This document shows positions 9,348 through 60,279 of a DNA stretch of 64,000 nucleotides, piece after piece. The notes beneath the pieces were generated by a model. It was not told the origin of the DNA. It searched no databases and saw nothing but the letters and a program-made list of their open reading frames with translations. This DNA is from Gemmatimonadales bacterium (lineage in GTDB: Bacteria; Gemmatimonadota; Gemmatimonadetes; Gemmatimonadales; GWC2-71-9). The stretch spans positions 1,816 to 65,815 of the forward strand of contig DATMDQ010000085.1 of NCBI GenBank assembly GCA_035557715.1. Direction: 5' to 3'. A program made the position numbers and the translations under genes. Position 1 is the stretch's first letter; every line of letters starts with the position of its first letter.

Positions 9348-10376
9348 GTGGCCGAGCAGGAGCTGAAGGACATATCCATCATCGGCGGCGGCCCGACCGG
9401 CCTGTTCGCCGCCTTCTACGCGGGCATGCGCGGGGCATCCGCGCGCATCATCGACGCTCTTCCGGCTCTGGGCGGGCAACTGATGGCGCTCTATCCAGAG
9501 AAATACATCTTCGATGTGGCCGGCTTTCCCAAGGTGCTCGCCAAGGACCTGGTGCGGGACATGGCGACCCAGGCGCTGCAGTTCGGAGCCACCACCCACC
9601 TGGGTGAGATCGTGACCGGACTTCGGCGGGTAGAGGAGAACGGAACCAGTCACTTCGTACTGGAGACTTCGGAATCCGAGTATCCCACCCGGACCATCAT
9701 CATTGCTGCCGGTATCGGCGCGTTCGAGGCTCGAAAACTGGGTATCGCGGGAGAAGATCGTTTCGAGGAGAAGGGTCTCTTTTTCAAGGTGTTGGACCCG
9801 AAACAGTTCCAGGGCCAGCGCGTGCTTCTGGTGGGTGGCGGTGATTCTGCATTCGACTGGGCGGTGAACCTGCAGGGCATCGCGAAGTCCATCACGCTCA
9901 TTCACCGGCGCGACGGGTTCCGGGCCCACCAGGCAACGATCAGCCAGGTACAGGAATTCCAGCGCGCGGGAAAGTGCGACTTGCGCACCTTCTGGGAGGT
10001 GAAGGCGCTCCACGGCAACGGCAAGGTCGAGCGGGTCACCATCTTCAACAGCAAGACGAAGGAGGAAGAGACGCTCGAGATGGACGCCGTCATCCCGCTG
10101 CTCGGGTTCCACTCCGATCTCGGCGCTATCAAGGAATGGGGTCTCGATACGGAGAAGGCTGACATCAAGGTGGATCAGGTGATGGCCACCAACGTGCCCG
10201 GGATCTATGCCGCGGGGGACATCACCCACTATCCCGGCAAGCTCAAGCTGATCGCGACCGGCGCGGGCGAGGCCTGCATCGCCGTGAACAACGCGGTACA
10301 CTGGATCAATCCCAAGACCAAGGTGAACCCGGGGCATTCGTCCAACATGGCGCTCTTCGGGCAGAAAGACGATTGA
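9348..10376 (+). CDS. Ferredoxin-NADP+ reductase, thioredoxin-reductase-like (YumC type)
   Basis: ISIIGGGPTGLFAAFYAGMRG...LGGQL...YPEKYIFDVAGFP, with a second dinucleotide motif VLLVGGGDSAFDWA. GTG start with AGGAG 6 nt upstream. Confidence 0.9.
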   Translation: MAEQELKDISIIGGGPTGLFAAFYAGMRGASARIIDALPALGGQLMALYPEKYIFDVAGFPKVLAKDLVRDMATQALQFGATTHLGEIVTGLRRVEENGTSHFVLETSESEYPTRTIIIAAGIGAFEARKLGIAGEDRFEEKGLFFKVLDPKQFQGQRVLLVGGGDSAFDWAVNLQGIAKSITLIHRRDGFRAHQATISQVQEFQRAGKCDLRTFWEVKALHGNGKVERVTIFNSKTKEEETLEMDAVIPLLGFHSDLGAIKEWGLDTEKADIKVDQVMATNVPGIYAAGDITHYPGKLKLIATGAGEACIAVNNAVHWINPKTKVNPGHSSNMALFGQKDD

Positions 10377-10391
10377 CGGGAAGGACGGGGG

Positions 10392-11654
10392 TCACCCTGA
10401 GGGAGCGGCGCGACCGAGGGGGCCAAGGCGCCGACTCCAGTCGACGCTCAGCGTGAAGAGGAGAAGCATCACCCACACGGACACGCTGTAACCCGCCAGG
10501 TAGTGATGGATGCGGCTGCCGGTCAGATCACGTCCCAGTCCTATTACCACCGTGCCTGCCCACGCCAATCCAAGGGCTAACCGCCCAACTCTCCCGAACC
10601 GACTGAAATCCAGCGCGAAGAAGGCGTAGAAGACGAAAAGCAGCGTGACCAGGTGCGCCCTCCAGGTGATCCCCGACAATAGATGGCCGGTCAGAAAGAC
10701 ACTGGAGATCTCGAGCGCCGTAATCTGCCGGCCCGCCCGCCTCAACTGCACCAGATGCGCCAGGAAGGCCGCGAGTACTGCCAATGCGAGCACCCGATAA
10801 ATCATGGGAGCAGCTGGGGCGAGGGATGGCAAGTAGGCGTATTCGTAGGGCGGCACATCTTCCGCCGCTGCCGGAGTAACGGTCCGGTAGACCAAGGCAG
10901 CAAGATTCTGGTTACGGTAGTTCGTAATCACCCCGCCTGCAGCGAACGCCTGCAGAAAACTTCCGTAGTAGTCCGTCAGGTCCTCCGATCCCTGCGGTAG
11001 CCCTCGTTGAATAGTCGGCAACATCAGGCACAGCACAGCAAACACGAAGATGGCCGTAAGGCTGCGCCGGCTTCCGCGAAGGGCGGCCCAGACAAGAAAG
11101 AAGACTGGGGTGATCTTGATGGCGGTGGCCGCCACGAGCCACCCTCCAGCCGCAAACTCCCGCTTCGAGAGAAGCGCCTGCACGCCGAGGAGGGTGAGGA
11201 CGAACGTCAACAGGTTCACCTGAAGGTGCGCCATGTTGTCCAGCATGAATCCGGCTGAGCAGAGAACTGCCAGGGCCAACGGCCGGGCTCCCGGCGGCCT
11301 CTGCGGCTCCAGCCGTTGCCCGATGTCGCGGGATACCCAGACAGCGATGATGATGAGCCCGGCACTCGCGACGTAGAAAAGCCCCGCCGCCGTTTTCAAC
11401 GGGAAGAGGCCGAGCACCTGGAAGACTTGAGCCGCGAAGGGCGGGTAGTTGAAGTGGCGGGCGCCAGGGAGTGGCTGGTAGAGCGGCAAGCCATGGGCGA
11501 AGTCATATCCCGCCTGCCAGAACACGTGGAAATCGGTACCGACGCCCTGCCTGGAGGCTCGGCGTGCGGCCGAGGCAATGACGACCACCCCAAAGAGGAC
11601 CACGCCAAGGGCTTGGCTCCAATGCCACCGCCCCCGTCTACCGCGACCGCTCAC
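10392..11654 (-). CDS. Polytopic membrane glycosyltransferase (GT87 / DUF2029-like)
   Basis: 420 aa with about 10 hydrophobic segments. The pattern is typical of DUF2029 mannosyltransferase-like proteins. GTG start. Confidence 0.65.
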   Translation of the reverse strand: MSGRGRRGRWHWSQALGVVLFGVVVIASAARRASRQGVGTDFHVFWQAGYDFAHGLPLYQPLPGARHFNYPPFAAQVFQVLGLFPLKTAAGLFYVASAGLIIIAVWVSRDIGQRLEPQRPPGARPLALAVLCSAGFMLDNMAHLQVNLLTFVLTLLGVQALLSKREFAAGGWLVAATAIKITPVFFLVWAALRGSRRSLTAIFVFAVLCLMLPTIQRGLPQGSEDLTDYYGSFLQAFAAGGVITNYRNQNLAALVYRTVTPAAAEDVPPYEYAYLPSLAPAAPMIYRVLALAVLAAFLAHLVQLRRAGRQITALEISSVFLTGHLLSGITWRAHLVTLLFVFYAFFALDFSRFGRVGRLALGLAWAGTVVIGLGRDLTGSRIHHYLAGYSVSVWVMLLLFTLSVDWSRRLGPLGRAAPSG

Positions 11655-11674: not shown

Positions 11675-11697
11675 GTTTACCGCTCTCACCTCACCCC
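11675..11697. repeat. Solitary C-arm fragment (GTTTACCGCTCTCACCTCACCCC)
   Basis: The reverse complement reads GGTGAGG TGAGAGC GGTAAAC. It overlaps the dacB stop, and no partner G-arm was seen. Confidence 0.5.
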
Positions 11698-13251
11698 TTT
11701 TCCCATCTCCACCACAACACTGTCGATCACTCCCAGAATTGCCCGGCCTGGCTGGACGTGGTGGTTAGCCTGCACCGAGAAGGTGAGAAATCTTCCGCGG
11801 GCCAGCTCGATATATCCCGAGAGGGTGTTCACCCGGGAGATGCTTCCTGTCTTTCCCCGTACTCGTCCAGCGAGGGGCGTCCCCACGAAGCGGGTGCGGA
11901 GCGAGCCGGTAACGCCCGCCTGGGGAAGCCCGGACGCAAAAGTGGCGTAGCGCGGGTGGCCACGGATGAAGCGGAGTATCTGGGTGAACGCTACCGGGCT
12001 CAGCAGATTGGTGCTCGAGAGACCGGAGCCATCGCTCAGGGAGATCTGGGTCGAATCAATTCGGACCGAATCGATCAGAAAGCGCCGCTCCACTTCGAGG
12101 CCTTCCGGCCATGAGCCGCCTCTCCCGAACTGCCGGCCCAGCTGCTTCAGCAACATTTCCGCGAACCAGTTCTGACTGGTGTTGAGGATGGGAAAGATCC
12201 AGTCCCGGAGTGGGCGGGAGGAGACCTCCGCCAACGGCGCGGTTGCCCGCATGCCGGCGTACAGGGTGGAGTCAGTGGTAGACCGGGTAGTGCCTGCAAC
12301 CGAGATGCCTGCATCGGTCAGTGCCTGACGCAGGGCTCGCGCGGCGTACAGATTCGGGTCCGGCAACGCGAATGACTCGATGCGCCTCGGGTTGTCGAGG
12401 GCCACGGTGCCTTCGGCCCAGATTTGAAGCGTGCCGGGATGGCGGAAGAAGCGATCCCCGATGTCCGACTCCCCGCCGGGCGGCACCGTGACCGTGCGGT
12501 TCTCGAAGCTGATGTCGCCCAGGTCCGGACTCATCGAGATAACGGCCGGTGTGCCCGGCGCCGGCCCCGGCTGCCAGGTGAAATCGACGCTGTTATCGTG
12601 GAAGCCGAGTCCCGAGACTGGTGCCGCGTACCACCAGTTGAGATCGAACTGTTCCCAATTCGGGTGGACCAGTGTGGGCTCGAAGTAGCTGCCGTCGCCC
12701 ACCACATCTCCAGCGATCAGCTGTACCCCCAGGCTTCGGAGCGAATCGGCCAGCTGGCGCAGCCGGGCGAACGGATCGGTGTCGCACACGCCGGCCAGGG
12801 TGGAGTCGGTGGCGTAGCAGCGTTGATCCATGGTAGGATCGCCTCGGCCGTAGAGCAGCAGATCCCCCACGAGGACGCCGCCTACGATCGGCCCGCCGTA
12901 GACGCTGGTCTTCACGCGCCAGTCGGGGGGGAGAAGCGCCGAGGCCACGGCGCTGACGACCAGCTTGGTGTTGCTGGCGGGAATGAAGAGACGATCGGCG
13001 TTCCGGCCATAAACCAGCCGCCCATTCTGGTCCACCATTGCCACGCCCCAGAGCTGCCGGTTGAACGGTGGACGATCCAGTCGAGCGTCGAGGCGCTTGG
13101 ACAGGGACTGTGCGGGAAGGACGGGAATGACGGGAAGGACGGGAAGGATCAAGAGAGTAAGCAGGGGGCGCAAGATTCCTGGGATCAACCAAGAGCGGGT
13201 AATCCTCACCCTCCCGACCTTCCCGCCTTTCCCGTCCTTGCCCTCAATCAT
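11686..13251 (-). CDS. dacB: D-alanyl-D-alanine carboxypeptidase/endopeptidase (PBP4, peptidase S13)
   Basis: Active-site SxxK (IPASNTKL) and an overall PBP4-like sequence. The start is uncertain: ATG 13251, or TTG 13188, which gives a cleaner signal peptide (IPGILRPLLTLLILPVLPVIPVLPA/QS). The N-terminus is encoded by a 9-mer repeat. Confidence 0.85.
   Translation of the reverse strand: MIEGKDGKGGKVGRVRITRSWLIPGILRPLLTLLILPVLPVIPVLPAQSLSKRLDARLDRPPFNRQLWGVAMVDQNGRLVYGRNADRLFIPASNTKLVVSAVASALLPPDWRVKTSVYGGPIVGGVLVGDLLLYGRGDPTMDQRCYATDSTLAGVCDTDPFARLRQLADSLRSLGVQLIAGDVVGDGSYFEPTLVHPNWEQFDLNWWYAAPVSGLGFHDNSVDFTWQPGPAPGTPAVISMSPDLGDISFENRTVTVPPGGESDIGDRFFRHPGTLQIWAEGTVALDNPRRIESFALPDPNLYAARALRQALTDAGISVAGTTRSTTDSTLYAGMRATAPLAEVSSRPLRDWIFPILNTSQNWFAEMLLKQLGRQFGRGGSWPEGLEVERRFLIDSVRIDSTQISLSDGSGLSSTNLLSPVAFTQILRFIRGHPRYATFASGLPQAGVTGSLRTRFVGTPLAGRVRGKTGSISRVNTLSGYIELARGRFLTFSVQANHHVQPGRAILGVIDSVVVEMGKGVR
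13114..13243. repeat. Tandem 9-mer palindrome (GGGAAGGAC GGGAATGAC GGGAAGGAC GGGAAGGAT, 54-nt spacer, inverted array CCTCACCCTCCCGACCTTCCCGCCTTTCCCGTCCTTGCCC)
   Basis: Read directly from the sequence. It lies at the dppB-stop / dacB-start junction and overlaps the dacB 5' coding region. Confidence 0.9.
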
Positions 13252-14164
13252 ACGCCACCCTCGGATCCACCCGAGCATAGAGCAAGTCGGTCAGCAGGTT
13301 CACCATCACGAAGACCAGGCTGAGGAAGAGGATGCTTCCCTGTACTGCCGGGAGGTCACGCTTGTCGATTGCCGTGAGGACATATCGGCCCACTCCAGGC
13401 CAGGAAAAGATGGTCTCGGTCAGGATGGAGCCGGTCAGATAACTGCCGAAGTCCAGCCCCAGCACGGTAACGACGGGGAGGAGGGCATTGCGAAACCCGT
13501 GCGAAAGCACCACGCGGCCTTCGTTCAATCCCTTGGCACGCGCCGTGCGAATGAAGTCGCTCTGGAGCACTTCCTGCATGGCTGCCCGCGTCATCCGCGA
13601 CAAGAACGCGACCGATCTCATGCCCAGCGTGATGGCGGGAAGAATCAGGTATATGAGGCCGGCCGATCCCGACGGCGGCAGCCAGCGCAAATGCACGGCG
13701 AAGATCAGGATCAGGATCAGACCAACCCAATAGACTGGGAACGAGACTCCCAGATAGGCGGCGAAGGTCGCAAATCGGTCGGCCCAGCTGCCCGGCCGCC
13801 AGGCGCCAAAGATTCCGACGGCGATGCCGACGACCGCCGCAAAGAGCATGGCCGCGCCGGCCAGCCGCAGCGTCGCCGGAAACCGCTCGAGCAGGTCCTG
13901 CAGGATCGGTCGCCGGGTGATGTAACTGGTGCCGAGATCGCCCTGGAGAACGCCACCGATGTAGTGCCCGAACTGCTGGTAGAGTGGATCGTCCAGCCGC
14001 AGCTCGGCCCGGAGTCGGGCGAGAGTCTCGGCGTCTGCTCGCTCTCCGACCATCGCTTGCACCGGATCGCCGGGGGCGACATAGAGCAGCAGAAAGGTGA
14101 CCAGCAGCACGCCAAACAGCGTGGGGACCAGCAGCGCGAGCCGATACAGTATGAACCGCCTCAC
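13244..14164 (-). CDS. Peptide/nickel ABC transporter permease (DppB/OppB-like)
   Basis: RRFILYRLALLVPTLFGVLLVTFLLL N-terminus and a BPD-type permease body. Start set to GTG 14164, giving a GTGA overlap with the binding-protein gene. Confidence 0.88.
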   Translation of the reverse strand: MRRFILYRLALLVPTLFGVLLVTFLLLYVAPGDPVQAMVGERADAETLARLRAELRLDDPLYQQFGHYIGGVLQGDLGTSYITRRPILQDLLERFPATLRLAGAAMLFAAVVGIAVGIFGAWRPGSWADRFATFAAYLGVSFPVYWVGLILILIFAVHLRWLPPSGSAGLIYLILPAITLGMRSVAFLSRMTRAAMQEVLQSDFIRTARAKGLNEGRVVLSHGFRNALLPVVTVLGLDFGSYLTGSILTETIFSWPGVGRYVLTAIDKRDLPAVQGSILFLSLVFVMVNLLTDLLYARVDPRVAYD

Positions 14165-15693
14165 CGGGTACGCTTTGCCTCCATCCATCGCTGCCCGGTG
14201 AAGACCAGCGGAATCCGCCAGCCCTTTACATCGGGCTGACTGGCCCAGACGTCGACCGGAAACCAGAGAAAGATCCACGGCGCCAGGTCGAACACCCGGG
14301 CGTCGATCTCGCGCGATAGCCGTGCTTTCTCGGCCTCATCGGTCGTGGCGCGCGCGCGGAGGATCATCGAGTCCACCGCGGCGTCGGCGAGAAAAGCATA
14401 GTTGCCGCCCGGACCTTTGTTGCGGGAGTGGAAGAGCGGGAAGTTAAAGTTCTCGGGGTCGGGGTAGTCGGCCCACCAGTCGGTCAGGAAGAGGTCGGCT
14501 TCACCGTTGCGCACCGCCGCGCGAGCGCTCGACGCATCCCGCTCCACGATCTCCGCCCGGATGCCGACCTCGGTCAGGTTCTGCTGAATGGACTGTGCCA
14601 GCCTGGCCAGCTCGGCGCGTTGCGTCCGCCACAGCTTGATCGAGAAGCCGTTGGGGTATCCGGCCTCGCTCAGTAGCTGCCTGGCCCTGGCGGGATCATA
14701 GCCGTATGGCACACGGGTGGAGTCGTAACCCACAATACCCGGTGGCAGGGAACCAGCGGCGAGTACCCCGCGATCGGCCATGACGGTTCCAAGCAGAGTC
14801 CGAACGTCCACCGCGTGATTGAGGGCCCGGCGGACGCGCACGTCCTTGAGGGGTCCCCGGCTGGTGTTGATAGCCACGTAGAGGTCGCGCAACGCCGGCC
14901 GGCGCTGGAGCTCGTCGGCATGGGTCTGCTCCCAGCGCCGGGTCTCGCCCACCGGTACCTCGACTACGCTCAGCTGGCCGGCCTCGTACTCGGCTGCTTG
15001 AGTCAGAGGCTCGGGAATGATTCGGATTCGGAGGGTGTCGGATTTCGGAGCCCCGCCCCAGTAGCTCTCGTTCCTGGCCAGCACGATAGCGTCGTCGTGC
15101 GACCAGGAGACGAACTTCCACGGTCCGCTTCCGGTGGGACCCTGGTCGAAGTTAGGCGGGGTGGGCGTGGGAACGATGGCGGCTACCGGCATCGCCAGCA
15201 GCTTGGGAAAGACGTTGAGTGGCTCCTCCAGGGTCAGGACCAGGGTGGAATCGTCGCGTACGCCGATCCCCGGTACCTCCTTGGCCGATCCGGCGGCGTA
15301 GGCTCGGGCGCCCTGAATCGGGTACAGGGGCCAGCTCCGCCCGCCGGTGCTCCCCGGCGCCAGAGCGCGCAGAAAGGAAGCGTGCACGTCTGCCGCCTTG
15401 ATCGGGCGACCGTCATGAAATGAGGCGTTCGGGCGCAGGCGGAAAGTGTAGACCCGCCCGGCGACATCCGTCTCCCAGCTGCGGGCGAGTCCGGGCTTCA
15501 GGTGGGCGTCGGCATCAAACTGTGTCAGATTGTCGAACAGCTGCGAAACGACCTCACCGGTCGGCACGTCGGTGGACAATGCCGGGTCCAGGGATCGAGG
15601 GTCGTAGGTGAAATAGTAGTTGAGGGTTTGGTCGCTGCCCCGCTCGCCACAGGCGGCGATGACGAACGCAGTCGCGATGAGAAATTGGCGCAT
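14161..15693 (-). CDS. ABC transporter substrate-binding lipoprotein, family 5 (peptide/nickel)
   Basis: Lipoprotein signal MRQFLIATAFVIAACG and a family-5 SBP-like sequence throughout. ATG 15693 is preferred over TTG 15702. Confidence 0.88.
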   Translation of the reverse strand: MRQFLIATAFVIAACGERGSDQTLNYYFTYDPRSLDPALSTDVPTGEVVSQLFDNLTQFDADAHLKPGLARSWETDVAGRVYTFRLRPNASFHDGRPIKAADVHASFLRALAPGSTGGRSWPLYPIQGARAYAAGSAKEVPGIGVRDDSTLVLTLEEPLNVFPKLLAMPVAAIVPTPTPPNFDQGPTGSGPWKFVSWSHDDAIVLARNESYWGGAPKSDTLRIRIIPEPLTQAAEYEAGQLSVVEVPVGETRRWEQTHADELQRRPALRDLYVAINTSRGPLKDVRVRRALNHAVDVRTLLGTVMADRGVLAAGSLPPGIVGYDSTRVPYGYDPARARQLLSEAGYPNGFSIKLWRTQRAELARLAQSIQQNLTEVGIRAEIVERDASSARAAVRNGEADLFLTDWWADYPDPENFNFPLFHSRNKGPGGNYAFLADAAVDSMILRARATTDEAEKARLSREIDARVFDLAPWIFLWFPVDVWASQPDVKGWRIPLVFTGQRWMEAKRTR

Positions 15694-15704
15694 GTTTGTC
15701 AATC

Positions 15705-15796
15705 GGACAGCGGGGCAGGGGGGCAGGGGGCAGGAAAAAGCTCACCGAGCACGCTGAACCGGAGCGACTGCCCGCGGTCCCGCGGTCCCGCTGCCC
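15705..15796. repeat. G-run palindrome (GGACAGCGGGGCAGGGGGGCAGGGGGCAGG ... GACTGCCCGCGGTCCCGCGGTCCCGCTGCCC)
   Basis: Outer pairing is ACAGCGGG with CCCGCTG, and inner pairing is GGGCAG with CTGCCC. It lies in the divergent spacer, 12 nt from the SBP start codon. Confidence 0.8.
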
Positions 15797-42857: not shown

Positions 42858-42864
42858 GCTAGAA

Positions 42865-43002
42865 GGTAAGGGAAGGACGGGAAGGACGGGAAGGACGGAA
42901 GGGGCGGGGAAAAAATACCGATGTCATCCTGAGCGGAGCGAAGGATCTAGCCGGCGAGTGCGTTCCTTCCCATCCTTCCCCTCCTTCCCCATCCTTCCCG
43001 TC
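42865..43002. repeat. Tandem 9-mer palindrome with a distinct central core (GGTAAG GGGAAGGAC x3 GGAAGGGGCGGGG ... GTCATCCTGAGCGGAGCGAAGGATC ... TTCCTTCCCATCCTTCCCCTCCTTCCCCATCCTTCCCGTC)
   Basis: Read directly from the sequence. It fills the 143-nt spacer between the small zinc-ribbon ORF and the ruvB start, with the G-arm beginning 7 nt from the ruvB ATG. The unit is the same as at 13114-13149. Confidence 0.9.
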
Positions 43003-46520: not shown

Positions 46521-46614
46521 ATAAGCGGGGAAGCGGGGAAGCAGGGAAGCGGGGAAGGGGAAGCGGTGACCGTTTCTACTTTCCTTCCCCCCGCCTCCCC
46601 GCTTCCCCGCTTAT
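46521..46614. repeat. Tandem 8-mer palindrome (AAGCGGGG units) with a perfect 19-bp outer stem
   Basis: ATAAGCGGGGAAGCGGGGA (46521-46539) pairs with TCCCCGCTTCCCCGCTTAT (46596-46614). The G-arm begins 8 nt from the dnaB-like ATG. The C-arm encodes the last residues of the upstream ORF. Confidence 0.92.
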
Positions 46615-59347: not shown

Positions 59348-60193
59348 ATGCCACAGAGTGTGCTAGGGGAGCGGCTGCGGCGGGATCGATTCTTTCAGCT
59401 GGGGCTCTGCTTCGTCTCGGTAGTGGTGATTGCCGCGGTGTTCGCCCCCTGGCTAGCGCCCCACAACCCTATCACGGGCGACCTCAGGAACGCCTACCTG
59501 GTCGAGCCGGGGTCGCGATTCCTCCTGGGGACCGATACCCAGGGGCGCGACGTCCTCAGCCGGGTGCTCTACGGGGCCCGCCTGTCCCTTTCCGTCGGCA
59601 TCATTTCCCAGTCGGTGTCGGTGACCCTCGGCGTGCTGCTTGGCCTGTTGGCCGGCTACTACGGCCGTTGGGTCGATGCCCTGGTGATGCGTCTGGCCGA
59701 CATCACCCTCGCGTTCCCCACCCTTCTCCTGCTCATCGCGGTAGCCGCGGCGGTCAAGCCCTCGCTGCCTGTAGTCTTCGTCGTCATCGGGGTCGTTGGC
59801 TGGGCCGGCATGGCCCGACTGGTTCGAAGCCAGGTTCTGGTCCTCCGCCACTCCGAGTTCGTCCTGGCCGCCCGTGCGCTGGGGGCTCGTGACCGCCGGA
59901 TCCTGCTGCGGCATCTCCTCCCCAATGTGCGCACCCAGGTCATCATTGCGGCTACCCTGGGCATAGCGGGCGCTATCATGGCCGAAGCCGCGCTCTCCTT
60001 CGTGGGACTGGGGGCGCAGCCGCCCACCCCAAGTTGGGGGGCCATGGTGGCCGATGGCCGGGACCTGCTGCGCGTCGCCCCCTGGATCTCGTTCGCTCCC
60101 GGCCTCGCCATCGGTGCGGCGGTGCTCGGCTTCAACCTGGTGGGCGACGCGCTTCGTGAGGCGTACGATCCCAAGCTACGAAGTGAGAGGTGA
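59348..60193 (+). CDS. Peptide/nickel ABC transporter permease (DppC/OppC-like)
   Basis: N-terminal OppC-type segment and a BPD permease body (LGAQPPTPSWGAMV). It is isolated from the dppB-like and SBP genes about 44 kb away. Confidence 0.88.
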   Translation: MPQSVLGERLRRDRFFQLGLCFVSVVVIAAVFAPWLAPHNPITGDLRNAYLVEPGSRFLLGTDTQGRDVLSRVLYGARLSLSVGIISQSVSVTLGVLLGLLAGYYGRWVDALVMRLADITLAFPTLLLLIAVAAAVKPSLPVVFVVIGVVGWAGMARLVRSQVLVLRHSEFVLAARALGARDRRILLRHLLPNVRTQVIIAATLGIAGAIMAEAALSFVGLGAQPPTPSWGAMVADGRDLLRVAPWISFAPGLAIGAAVLGFNLVGDALREAYDPKLRSER

Positions 60194-60279
60194 GAGGTGA
60201 GAAGCGAGAAGGGAAATCCAGGGGAGGGGGTTGCGGTGAAGGGGAGTTCCCTCTCACCGCTTACTTCTCACCTCTCACC
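60182..60279. repeat. Tandem-heptamer palindrome (AGTGAGA GGTGAGA GGTGAGA AGCGAGA ... CCCTCTCACCGCTTACTTCTCACCTCTCACC) with a perfect 16-bp outer stem
   Basis: GGTGAGAGGTGAGAAG (60189-60204) pairs with CTTCTCACCTCTCACC (60264-60279). It spans the dppC-like stop (60191-60193) and both candidate GTG starts of the next gene. Confidence 0.92.

Follow-up and report, generated by a model that had tools for sequence, protein, structure and literature searches.

Can one arm of a dispersed hairpin repeat become part of the export signal of a conserved enzyme? This question is raised by the 5′ end of dacB in a 64,000-nucleotide stretch of contig DATMDQ010000085.1 (hereafter the window) from a Gemmatimonadales bacterium, whose genome, a 3.2-Mb soil metagenome-assembled genome (MAG), is denoted G000. 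The gene is a 530-codon open reading frame (ORF) on the minus strand (11686-13278) and encodes a Peptidase_S13 protein of the PBP4 (DacB) type. Two inverted arrays of a 9-nt unit lie at its 5′ end, and a preliminary description of the window had proposed that one of them encodes the core of the signal peptide. We consider it highly probable that a copy of an abundant hairpin repeat resides inside the 5′ end of dacB and that one of its arms has been accommodated in the signal peptide. The following sections examine the element itself, its counterparts in related genomes, and the genome-wide class to which it belongs.

The dacB hairpin and its predicted translation

On the plus strand, positions 13114-13149 consist of four 9-nt units (GGGAAGGAC, GGGAATGAC, GGGAAGGAC and GGGAAGGAT), and a reverse-complement array of the same 9-mer is found at about 13209-13243, which confirms the palindrome first described there. 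An inverted-repeat search delimited arms of 34 nt (13114-13147 and 13209-13242) that are 85% complementary and separated by a loop of 61 nt, and Tandem Repeats Finder (TRF) returned a period of 9 in both arrays, with 4.0 and 3.4 copies. A two-unit 18-mer probe, allowed up to three mismatches, matched the window 10 times against 0.10 expected, a count that none of 100 shuffles reached. These matches belong to the dacB locus and to a second palindrome at 42862-42999. The latter corresponds to the recurrence previously seen near 42870 and comprises an array at 42870-42905 with an inverted partner at 42963-42999; a fragment reported near 10377-10391 was likewise recovered, as a 1.5-unit GGGAAGGAC stretch at 10376-10392. 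No direct repeat of the kind left by target-site duplication flanks the arms of the dacB hairpin.

Read in the sense of dacB, a purine arm is followed by the loop and then by a pyrimidine arm (Table 1). The position of the mature protein relative to this element is well constrained. The Pfam Peptidase_S13 profile matches the dacB product with E = 9.8e-81 and its first position falls at ORF residue 59, while the alignments with mature crystal chains begin at ORF residues 58-59, opposite residue 6 of Bacillus subtilis PBP4a (PDB 1w5d) and residue 5 of the R39 enzyme of Actinomadura. The preliminary description had named translation beginning downstream of 13114 as a finding that would refute it; these alignments place the onset of mature homology directly after the arm, and no in-frame start occurs in the 68 nt that follow it, the next ones being inside conserved mature sequence. 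Because all usable start codons lie upstream of it, the pyrimidine arm (13149-13114) is predicted to be translated under every viable start model, and its coding status is independent of which start codon is chosen.

Could dacB nevertheless begin downstream of the arm, encode an unexported protein or be a pseudogene, the frame being open by chance? Neither arm contains a stop codon in any frame, and for this reason the openness of the frame across the arms says nothing by itself. However, a start at least 68 nt after the arm would remove the conserved LDARLDRPPFNRQ N-terminus together with all hydrophobic sequence. S13 DD-peptidases act in the periplasm. In addition, the dacB ORF is intact and 66-92% identical across the 17 congeners with which it was compared and from which a tree was built. 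We assign virtually no probability to these possibilities, which are effectively refuted by the mature-domain alignments and the lack of nearby starts.

A Sec signal starts with an n-region of positive charge, continues with a hydrophobic h-region of some 7-15 or more uncharged residues, and has small residues at positions -3 and -1. Signal peptides were called here from heuristic features (charge, Kyte–Doolittle hydropathy (KD) and small residues). Every start model of dacB yields a net positive n-region (+1 to +5 by this scoring). It is followed by an uncharged segment of 21 aa (PLLTLLILPVLPVIPVLPAQS; best-10 KD 2.94) and by A-Q-S, with A at -3 and S at -1, so that by heuristic assessment all features of a Sec type I signal are present. 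Of this segment, 11 of the 21 residues are encoded by the arm, which reads ILPVLPVIPVLP; without the arm only 10 aa would be left, seven of them hydrophobic. The proline-free stretch LLTLLIL comes from the loop. The earlier proposal that the arm encodes the core of the only plausible signal peptide holds insofar as the arm is a coding part of it, but the arm supplies the distal half and not the whole core. The loop-coded LLTLLIL and the arm together appear to form the 21-residue uncharged segment ending at A-Q-S, and export of PBP4 would now depend on array-coded residues.

Orthologous loci and the choice of start codon

The comparison with related species gives this element a history. The same 9-mer hairpin occupies the same place, with the same GKD/LPV frame, in G002 (dacB 92% identical), G017 (88%) and G008 (77%). 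As the preliminary description had suggested checking, the signal peptides of these orthologues are also repeat-encoded, and in the same frame: that of G002 ends in /QS (the slash marks the predicted cleavage site), and those of G017 and G008 read MIDGKDGKGGKDGMTGDRWSVSILRTLLCLLILPVVPVLPVLPA/QS and MISGKDGKHGKVRNDGKEKVRKAFPGWLTAALIASLPGFPVLPVLPVFPVLAVSA/QK. Purine arms differ by whole 9-nt units, with about four in G000 and six in G002. The distal half of the loop (ILRxLLxLL) is conserved in G002 and G017, and it can be aligned with the G008 loop (GCTTACT..CTGAT). Since the loops of G000 and G008 are alignable, and G008 is the basal branch of an eight-member clade, the sequences point to one old insertion behind these elements.

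Other relatives show different states of the locus. G011 carries an eroded copy that can still be read as a normal signal peptide. In G006, a solo pyrimidine array of five units (GTCCTCTCC type) follows directly after ATG ATT AGG CGG, reads MIRRVLAVLSALSVVSVPAVA/QK and constitutes the entire h-region of the dacB signal peptide. G016 has no array and a classical signal from the overlapping ATG (MISGAAALLPRLLAAVLSLLAIFPAHLTA/QG), and the order-level outgroups also have classical dacB signal peptides and no array. The A-Q-S/G/K motif is conserved in all dacB orthologues.

Further kinds of insert are found at this junction, namely a GAGAGGACG 9-mer hairpin in G015 and G009, an 8-mer hairpin in G012, and G-rich arrays and/or a palindrome of a second type in G001, G018, G005 and G014. 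From these sequences, the permease/dacB junction is a recurrent home of such repeats. A second dispersed repeat (see below) is read in frame in the dacB 5′ region of several congeners (L010, L012, L013 and L017), for instance as ...VTLNEVKGP...FAALRVT.... The ending PLHA/Q shared by the dacB signal of G009 and a PD40 protein of G000 was set aside as a coincidence: only the arms match in DNA, and the ending is coded differently.

Within each species the arms are 85-97% complementary, though they differ between species. The pyrimidine arm of G002 contains an aberrant Asp codon (GAC, in LPDLP) whose counterpart in the purine arm is an equally aberrant GTC; the two form a compensatory pair. Moreover, unit types switch between close relatives at one and the same locus (dacB and the M28 gene discussed below), which would be best explained by conversion by other copies. 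By hand count, one in about 14 arm substitutions is disruptive against about 3.4 expected, numbers too small for significance.

Where translation of dacB starts is a separate matter. In-frame candidates 5′ of the arm end are ATG 13278 (within the permease gene), ATG 13251, GTG 13209, TTG 13188, TTG 13173 and TTG 13152; GTG 13209 and TTG 13173 are additional to the two starts, 13251 and 13188, considered earlier. With about even probability, dacB starts at ATG 13251 through termination-reinitiation coupling and the whole hairpin is translated; the second array would then be coding as well and read G K D G K G G K V G R, in agreement with the preliminary description. The CGTATGA motif containing this ATG is conserved in 13 congeners, and in 12 of the 13 an uninterrupted frame leads from the ATG to the mature protein through inserts of varied kinds and of 63-207 nt. 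If the first 9 nt, where closure is trivial, are disregarded, the two remaining frames are open in 15 of 26 cases, and the null success rate is about 0.2 per lineage; four to five independent insert lineages succeed and one fails (p < 0.01). In G008, no ATG, GTG or TTG lies between the stop-overlapping ATG and the mature protein, so that the whole hairpin must be read there. It is the in-frame overlapping ATG at 12 of 13 loci, together with the G008 loop, that favours ATG 13251.

A start in the loop or at its edge (GTG 13209, TTG 13188 or TTG 13173) is a plausible alternative to which we attach somewhat less than even probability, the small remainder falling to the use of both. The purine arm would then be an untranslated leader with Shine-Dalgarno-like strings and only the pyrimidine arm would be coding; the hairpin would hide the ribosome-binding site by pairing it with h-region codons and could tune translation. 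Such strings (AAGGA/GGAGG) are indeed present in the purine arm, with GTG 13209 at its 3′ edge, as judged by the general bacterial consensus, the 16S 3′ end being absent from the MAG. Where the purine arm meets the loop, a GTG or ATG is found 4-8 nt past AAGGA/AAGG in each of G000, G002 and G017, and these species have additional starts 0-5 codons ahead of the conserved I-L-R. Comparison of G000 with G002 shows rapid divergence in the proximal half of the loop and conservation in the distal half, signal peptides of ordinary length (23-35 aa) would result, and in the genes of the M28 lipoprotein and the PD40 protein the loop contains the ATG and the frame through the purine arm is interrupted by stops. 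However, the G008 loop offers no start codon of any of the three kinds, and the persistence of the stop-overlapping ATG in frame would be unexpected if the upstream region were untranslated. The spacing is also unfavourable, as GAGGA lies 15 nt from TTG 13188 and GGAGG abuts GTG 13209 directly.

Several observations weigh against an accommodated hairpin arm, or against translation of the whole element. Translation of the arm is deduced from the sequence. Five prolines in a 21-residue h/c-segment are unusual for a Sec signal; nevertheless, four species retain the LPV/FPV design, which also recurs in a further protein encoded in this genome (C97:3690). The GAC/GTC pair of G002 indicates that arm-arm pairing is able to override protein optimality. 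In G015 (L004, G015:C24) the arm contains one 7-nt unit (CTCCGTC), the ATG is out of frame and no frame provides a convincing signal; the cause may be an error of assembly, the MAG being 63% complete, or the locus may be a genuine counter-example. Finally, the M28 start lies in the loop and the purine arm of that gene has in-frame stops, so translation of the whole element is not a general rule; as M28 genes start in the loop, ATG 13251 is a favoured model for G000 and no more than that.

The genome-wide hairpin class and other arm-coded signals

The dacB element is one of many. A census that combined TRF arrays with an inverted-match search across the genome yielded 249 inverted-array elements, of which 120 have 7-mer, 87 have 8-mer and 35 have 9-mer units. 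The class, to which the dacB locus conforms, is defined by a G-rich array of 7-9-nt units, a loop and a complementary array, with the G-rich arm 5′. Dozens of different units occur, each matched between the two arms of its locus. The polarity is almost absolute: among 246 informative elements the left arm has G>C in 245 and the C-arm-first arrangement is found in one, such that the order from either strand is purine arm, loop, pyrimidine arm. The GGGAAGGAC 9-mer itself gives 79 two-unit matches at about 30 loci genome-wide, usually as inverted pairs and mostly untranslated. Tandem, convergent and divergent junctions host 138, 50 and 38 elements against 1376, 383 and 370 among all junctions, which amounts to no bias (p = 0.31). 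The class is probably a generic, selfish or neutral repeat which colonises junctions and has no direction-dependent function.

Four further hairpins of this class were observed elsewhere in the window, at 527-610 (unit GGTAAGC), 15705-15796 (GGGGCAG/CCCGCGGT), 46523-46612 (AAGCGGGG) and 60180-60279 (GAAGTGA/GAGAGGT), all with the purine arm first. Loops have a median length of 49 nt and are unrelated between copies, with the exception of 19-20 of 201 which share a nested second dispersed repeat (GTCATCCTGAGCGAAGCGAAGGATC type; GTCAYCCTGAGCGNAGCGAAGGRKC, often as an inverted pair). This second repeat has 665 motif matches in the 3.2-Mb genome, including a copy at window 42905-42962 and two matches inside one Y1_Tnp gene (C121:85438-85782). 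The last codons of a GT87 glycosyltransferase gene (…LGPLGRAAPSG*; window 10376-10425) resemble it as well (TCACCCTGAGGGAGCGGCGCGACCGAGGGGG), and the stop codon of that gene directly precedes the 1.5-unit GGGAAGGAC fragment.

If the hairpin served primarily as a structure in RNA or DNA, for instance to terminate transcription, to stabilise the dpp operon mRNA at its 3′ end, to act as a G-quadruplex (G4)/hairpin switch or to attenuate translation, its overlap with coding sequence would be incidental. The element has properties that suit such a role: RNA 13100-13260(-) (161 nt) folds with -80.4 kcal/mol (z = -4.5), the arms pairing with each other, and the purine arm on the sense strand is G4-capable by sequence, with five GGG tracts at spacings of 1-7 nt; counted for the purine arm of either strand, there are four to five GGG tracts, spaced by 6-7 nt. 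Arm complementarity is maintained in each species, the GTC/GAC pair of G002 included, and the repeats of Xanthomonas and Nostoc share this geometry and lie within 50 bp after stops or before ORFs (PMC4692102). Yet the dacB hairpin has no U-tract and neither a convincing terminator nor a promoter; a terminator was rejected because one weak 6-bp stem without a real T-run was all that could be found, and a promoter scan was empty. No Rfam family scored above threshold, and an Rfam identity was discarded since the matches were far sub-threshold and of a generic long-hairpin (microRNA precursor) type. The absence of junction-type bias argues against a direction-dependent role, units such as GGCTATG and GTCTAGG lack G-runs, G016 and the outgroups manage without the element, and G011 and G006 have lost the hairpin but kept the coding arm. 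We hold a primarily structural role to be quite improbable.

Accommodation of the arm as coding sequence is seen elsewhere in the genome. At least six other exported proteins of G000 carry a 9-mer pyrimidine arm in the signal peptide, and in five of them the arm is the h-region in a hydrophobic frame (Table 1). The M28 lipoprotein shows this pattern in four species: besides G000, it is present in G006, G002 and G008, which combine LPV and LSV units in different ways. Here the loop holds the ATG, and lipoprotein signals of the usual kind are seen in the outgroups. In the G006 gene (L022, G006:C598) a single arm begins with CTTCCCGTC (LPV) units and continues with CTCTCCGTC (LSV) units, giving MRRTFAALPVVPVLSVLSVLSFSA/C. 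This mixed arm suggests that one unit family can turn into another, or that families move between loci by exchange.

The preliminary description had also contrasted coding loci, with 9-nt units, with intergenic loci, where units have 7 or 8 nt. For the genome-wide set, an element was scored as coding by proxy if a long ORF rich in G and C at third codon positions is open through the arm, with a start upstream and no start within 60 nt downstream. An arm lies within an ORF N-terminus in 10 of 35 9-mer elements and in 23 of 207 7/8-mer elements (29% vs 11%; odds ratio 3.2, p = 0.013). The contrast survives as a tendency and fails as a rule: 9-mer loci are for the most part intergenic, the one at 42862-42999 is not translated, and a few 7/8-mer arms fall in signal-peptide c-regions. 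The tendency can be understood because repeats of 9 nt leave the frame unchanged and yield one uniform tripeptide. Among pyrimidine-arm (C-arm) frames, those with KD > 1.5 number 15 of 105 for 9-mers, against 4 of 240 for 7-mers and 5 of 240 for 8-mers.

The opposite order of events, in which (Leu-Pro-Val)n arose in the signal peptide by selection or slippage and the inverted copy is coincidental or secondary, appears very improbable. Solo pyrimidine arrays do occur in signal peptides (dacB of G006, M28 of G011), and an arm in dnaE is continuous with a unit-like native LPDIP motif. Against this, the 9-mer is present at about 30 loci which are mostly untranslated and nearly always have the form of a G-arm-first inverted pair, and a tripeptide repeat cannot be encoded by units of 7 or 8 nt, which 207 of the 249 elements possess. 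Unit types moreover switch between species at one locus, and two of them are mixed in the M28 arm of G006.

The dnaE case concerns a linker (C129:21163-21248; L040, L041) with a short in-frame 9-mer hairpin (GGGAAAGACGGGAAGGA ... TCCTTCCCGCCCTTCCCGAC) that reads ...GNGGQDGKDGKDDTQGFLPALPDLPDIPAWTEAE.... It is restricted to G000 and its closest relative G002; the linkers of other congeners are mostly about 3-15 aa shorter, and that of G009 has a different 18-nt repeat instead. The native motif (CTTCCCGACATTCCC) with which the pyrimidine arm is continuous is conserved and may have seeded the arm.

At the dacB locus itself, three minus-strand genes follow one another, encoding an SBP_bac_5 solute-binding protein, a permease of an ATP-binding cassette (ABC) transporter, and PBP4.

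Table 1. Features of the dacB locus and related elements in G000 (window coordinates; codons in dacB sense)
Feature	Position	Strand	Codons	Reading or remark
DppB/OppB-type ABC transporter permease	13244..14278	-		Pfam BPD_transp_1, BPD_transp_1_N; stop codon adjoins purine arm
ATGATTGA junction	13244..13251	-		permease stop TGA (13246-13244) overlapped by putative ancestral dacB start ATG (13251-13249)
Purine arm (GGGCAAGGACGGGAAAGGCGGGAAGGTCGGGAGG, then GTG)	13209..13243	-	GGC AAG GAC GGG AAA GGC GGG AAG GTC GGG AGG GTG	G-K-D-G-K-G-G-K-V-G-R-V if ATG 13251 is used
Hairpin loop	13150..13208	-	AGG ATT ACC CGC TCT TGG TTG ATC CCA GGA ATC TTG CGC CCC CTG CTT ACT CTC TTG	R-I-T-R-S-W-L-I-P-G-I-L-R-P-L-L-T-L-L; candidate starts TTG 13188, TTG 13173, TTG 13152; includes proline-free hydrophobic LLTLLIL
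Pyrimidine arm, 4 x CTTCCCGTC-type units (G-rich on + strand)	13114..13149	-	ATC CTT CCC GTC CTT CCC GTC ATT CCC GTC CTT CCC	I-L-P-V-L-P-V-I-P-V-L-P
A-Q-S, predicted signal-peptidase site (A -3, S -1)	13105..13113	-	GCA CAG TCC	directly 3′ of arm
Mature PBP4 / DacB-type D-Ala-D-Ala carboxypeptidase (Peptidase_S13)	11686..13104	-		Pfam; PDB 1w5d, 2ex2, 1w79
Second GGGAAGGAC-type hairpin	42862..42999			untranslated; downstream minus-strand gene begins 4 nt past arm; loop holds copy of second dispersed repeat (GTCATCCTGAGCGGAGCGAAGGATC)
PD40 protein				predicted signal peptide MVGLRRRLARCLSVLSVFSVLSVLPLHA/Q
M28 lipoprotein				predicted signal peptide MRLLTNLARLSVLSAVSALSVLSA/C
Big_5 lipoprotein				predicted signal peptide (V)RFFSVFSVFSVLSA/C
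SPOR protein				predicted signal peptide ...AVFSVLSVLSAFSVLSAFPAAA/Q
CarboxypepD_reg protein				predicted signal peptide ...IVLLLPVFPVLPVFPASALSA/Q
Peripla_BP_2 lipoprotein				arm encodes basic n-region, not h-region

Proposed origin and comparison with known systems

The following course of events would account for the locus. A copy of the hairpin would have come to the junction of the ABC-permease gene and dacB, and because the ancestral overlap of ATG and stop (ATGATTGA) left no intergenic space, the element came to lie inside the dacB 5′ end. There, a 9-nt unit would be tolerated, as changes in copy number keep the reading frame. The register in use, CTT-CCC-GTC (Leu-Pro-Val), would be the only hydrophobic frame of the three. 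A purine arm followed by a pyrimidine arm would give polar or basic and then hydrophobic residues, matching the order of n-region and h-region in a Sec signal, and with a start at ATG 13251 the purine arm would be read as a Gly/Lys-rich extension of the n-region. The hairpin itself would behave as a selfish or neutral repeat, the complementarity of its arms being kept by exchange between them.

If this is correct, the passage of a repeat from non-coding, probably selfish DNA to a component that the protein cannot do without can be followed at one locus in one genus: G016 and the outgroups lack the element, G000, G002, G017 and G008 read a full hairpin, G011 has an eroded copy and G006 a solo arm. 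It also offers a mechanistic reason for unit length, in that 9 nt keep the frame and yield a homogeneous hydrophobic tripeptide, and the purine-then-pyrimidine polarity of the class suits the order from n-region to h-region. There are practical consequences too. At loci of this kind, start codons will be misassigned by gene callers and signal-peptide predictors, and assemblies break or slip in the arrays, as indicated by 23 of 249 elements at contig edges and by the orthologue with a 7-nt unit.

A bolder idea, tentative and on balance unlikely, is that the 9-mer hairpins are orientation-independent cassettes of a ribosome-binding site and a signal peptide which have repeatedly replaced, extended or created export signals in Gemmatimonadales. 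It is prompted by the genetic code, which gives polar or basic and then hydrophobic or small residues, and by the polarity being the same on both strands. Signal length would then be tuned in steps of three residues, unit types would be exchanged between loci, and the hairpins would drive the evolution of the secretome and not be tolerated junk.

In the literature we found no paper on these Gemmatimonadales elements or on signal peptides built from them, but each component has counterparts among known repeats. [quoted passage not shown] Unlike in REP/REPIN-RAYT systems, there is no arm consensus or GTAG-type motif across loci, and no array hairpin lies within 1.5 kb of either of the two Y1_Tnp (PF01797) genes of the genome. 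A MITE was rejected since there is neither a target-site duplication at dacB nor a shared interior; the search for an autonomous partner was limited to PF01797.

The heptamer arrays of Xanthomonas (GGGAATC) and Nostoc (GGGGA(C/T)T) described by Rehm et al. [quoted passage not shown] The Gemmatimonadales elements share with them tandem G-rich units, inverted stem-loop pairs and placement beside stops and starts. In contrast, dozens of units of 7-9 nt coexist here, divergent junctions are not depleted, 9-mer arms are recurrently translated according to our predictions, and G4 capacity is not general, as many units lack G-runs.

For a dispersed palindrome in frame, the closest analogue is the Rickettsia palindromic elements (RPEs), reportedly described by Ogata et al. 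in Science in 2000 and in Genome Research in 2002. RPEs are 100-150 bp long, and both their interior and the peptide that they encode are conserved (PMC10969869). Both kinds are dispersed palindromes which occur between genes and in frame in working genes, in the present case dacB, the genes of six exported proteins and the dnaE linker. Unlike in RPEs, neither element sequence nor encoded peptide is conserved across copies: the copies have only the arm architecture in common, units vary by locus, loops are unrelated, the arms consist of tandem arrays, and signal peptides are the favoured coding niche.

For a pyrimidine repeat as hydrophobic core, the nearest parallel is the CTCTT coding repeats of Neisseria opa genes, whose 5-nt unit lies in the leader peptide and whose copy-number changes shift the frame and cause phase variation (PMC3960869). 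In both systems a pyrimidine tandem repeat whose copy number varies (among strains in the case of opa) is translated, here by prediction, as the hydrophobic part of a signal. The 9-nt unit, however, changes the product by three residues per unit and the orthologues stay in frame, as opposed to phase variation, which depends on a unit that is not a multiple of three; the opa repeat, in turn, has no inverted partner and is not genome-wide. In-frame palindromic repeats and signal-peptide coding repeats are thus both of known kinds, and dacB combines them in an unusually complete within-genus series that links arrays of the Xanthomonas/Nostoc type, the in-frame palindromes of Rickettsia and the leader repeats of Neisseria.

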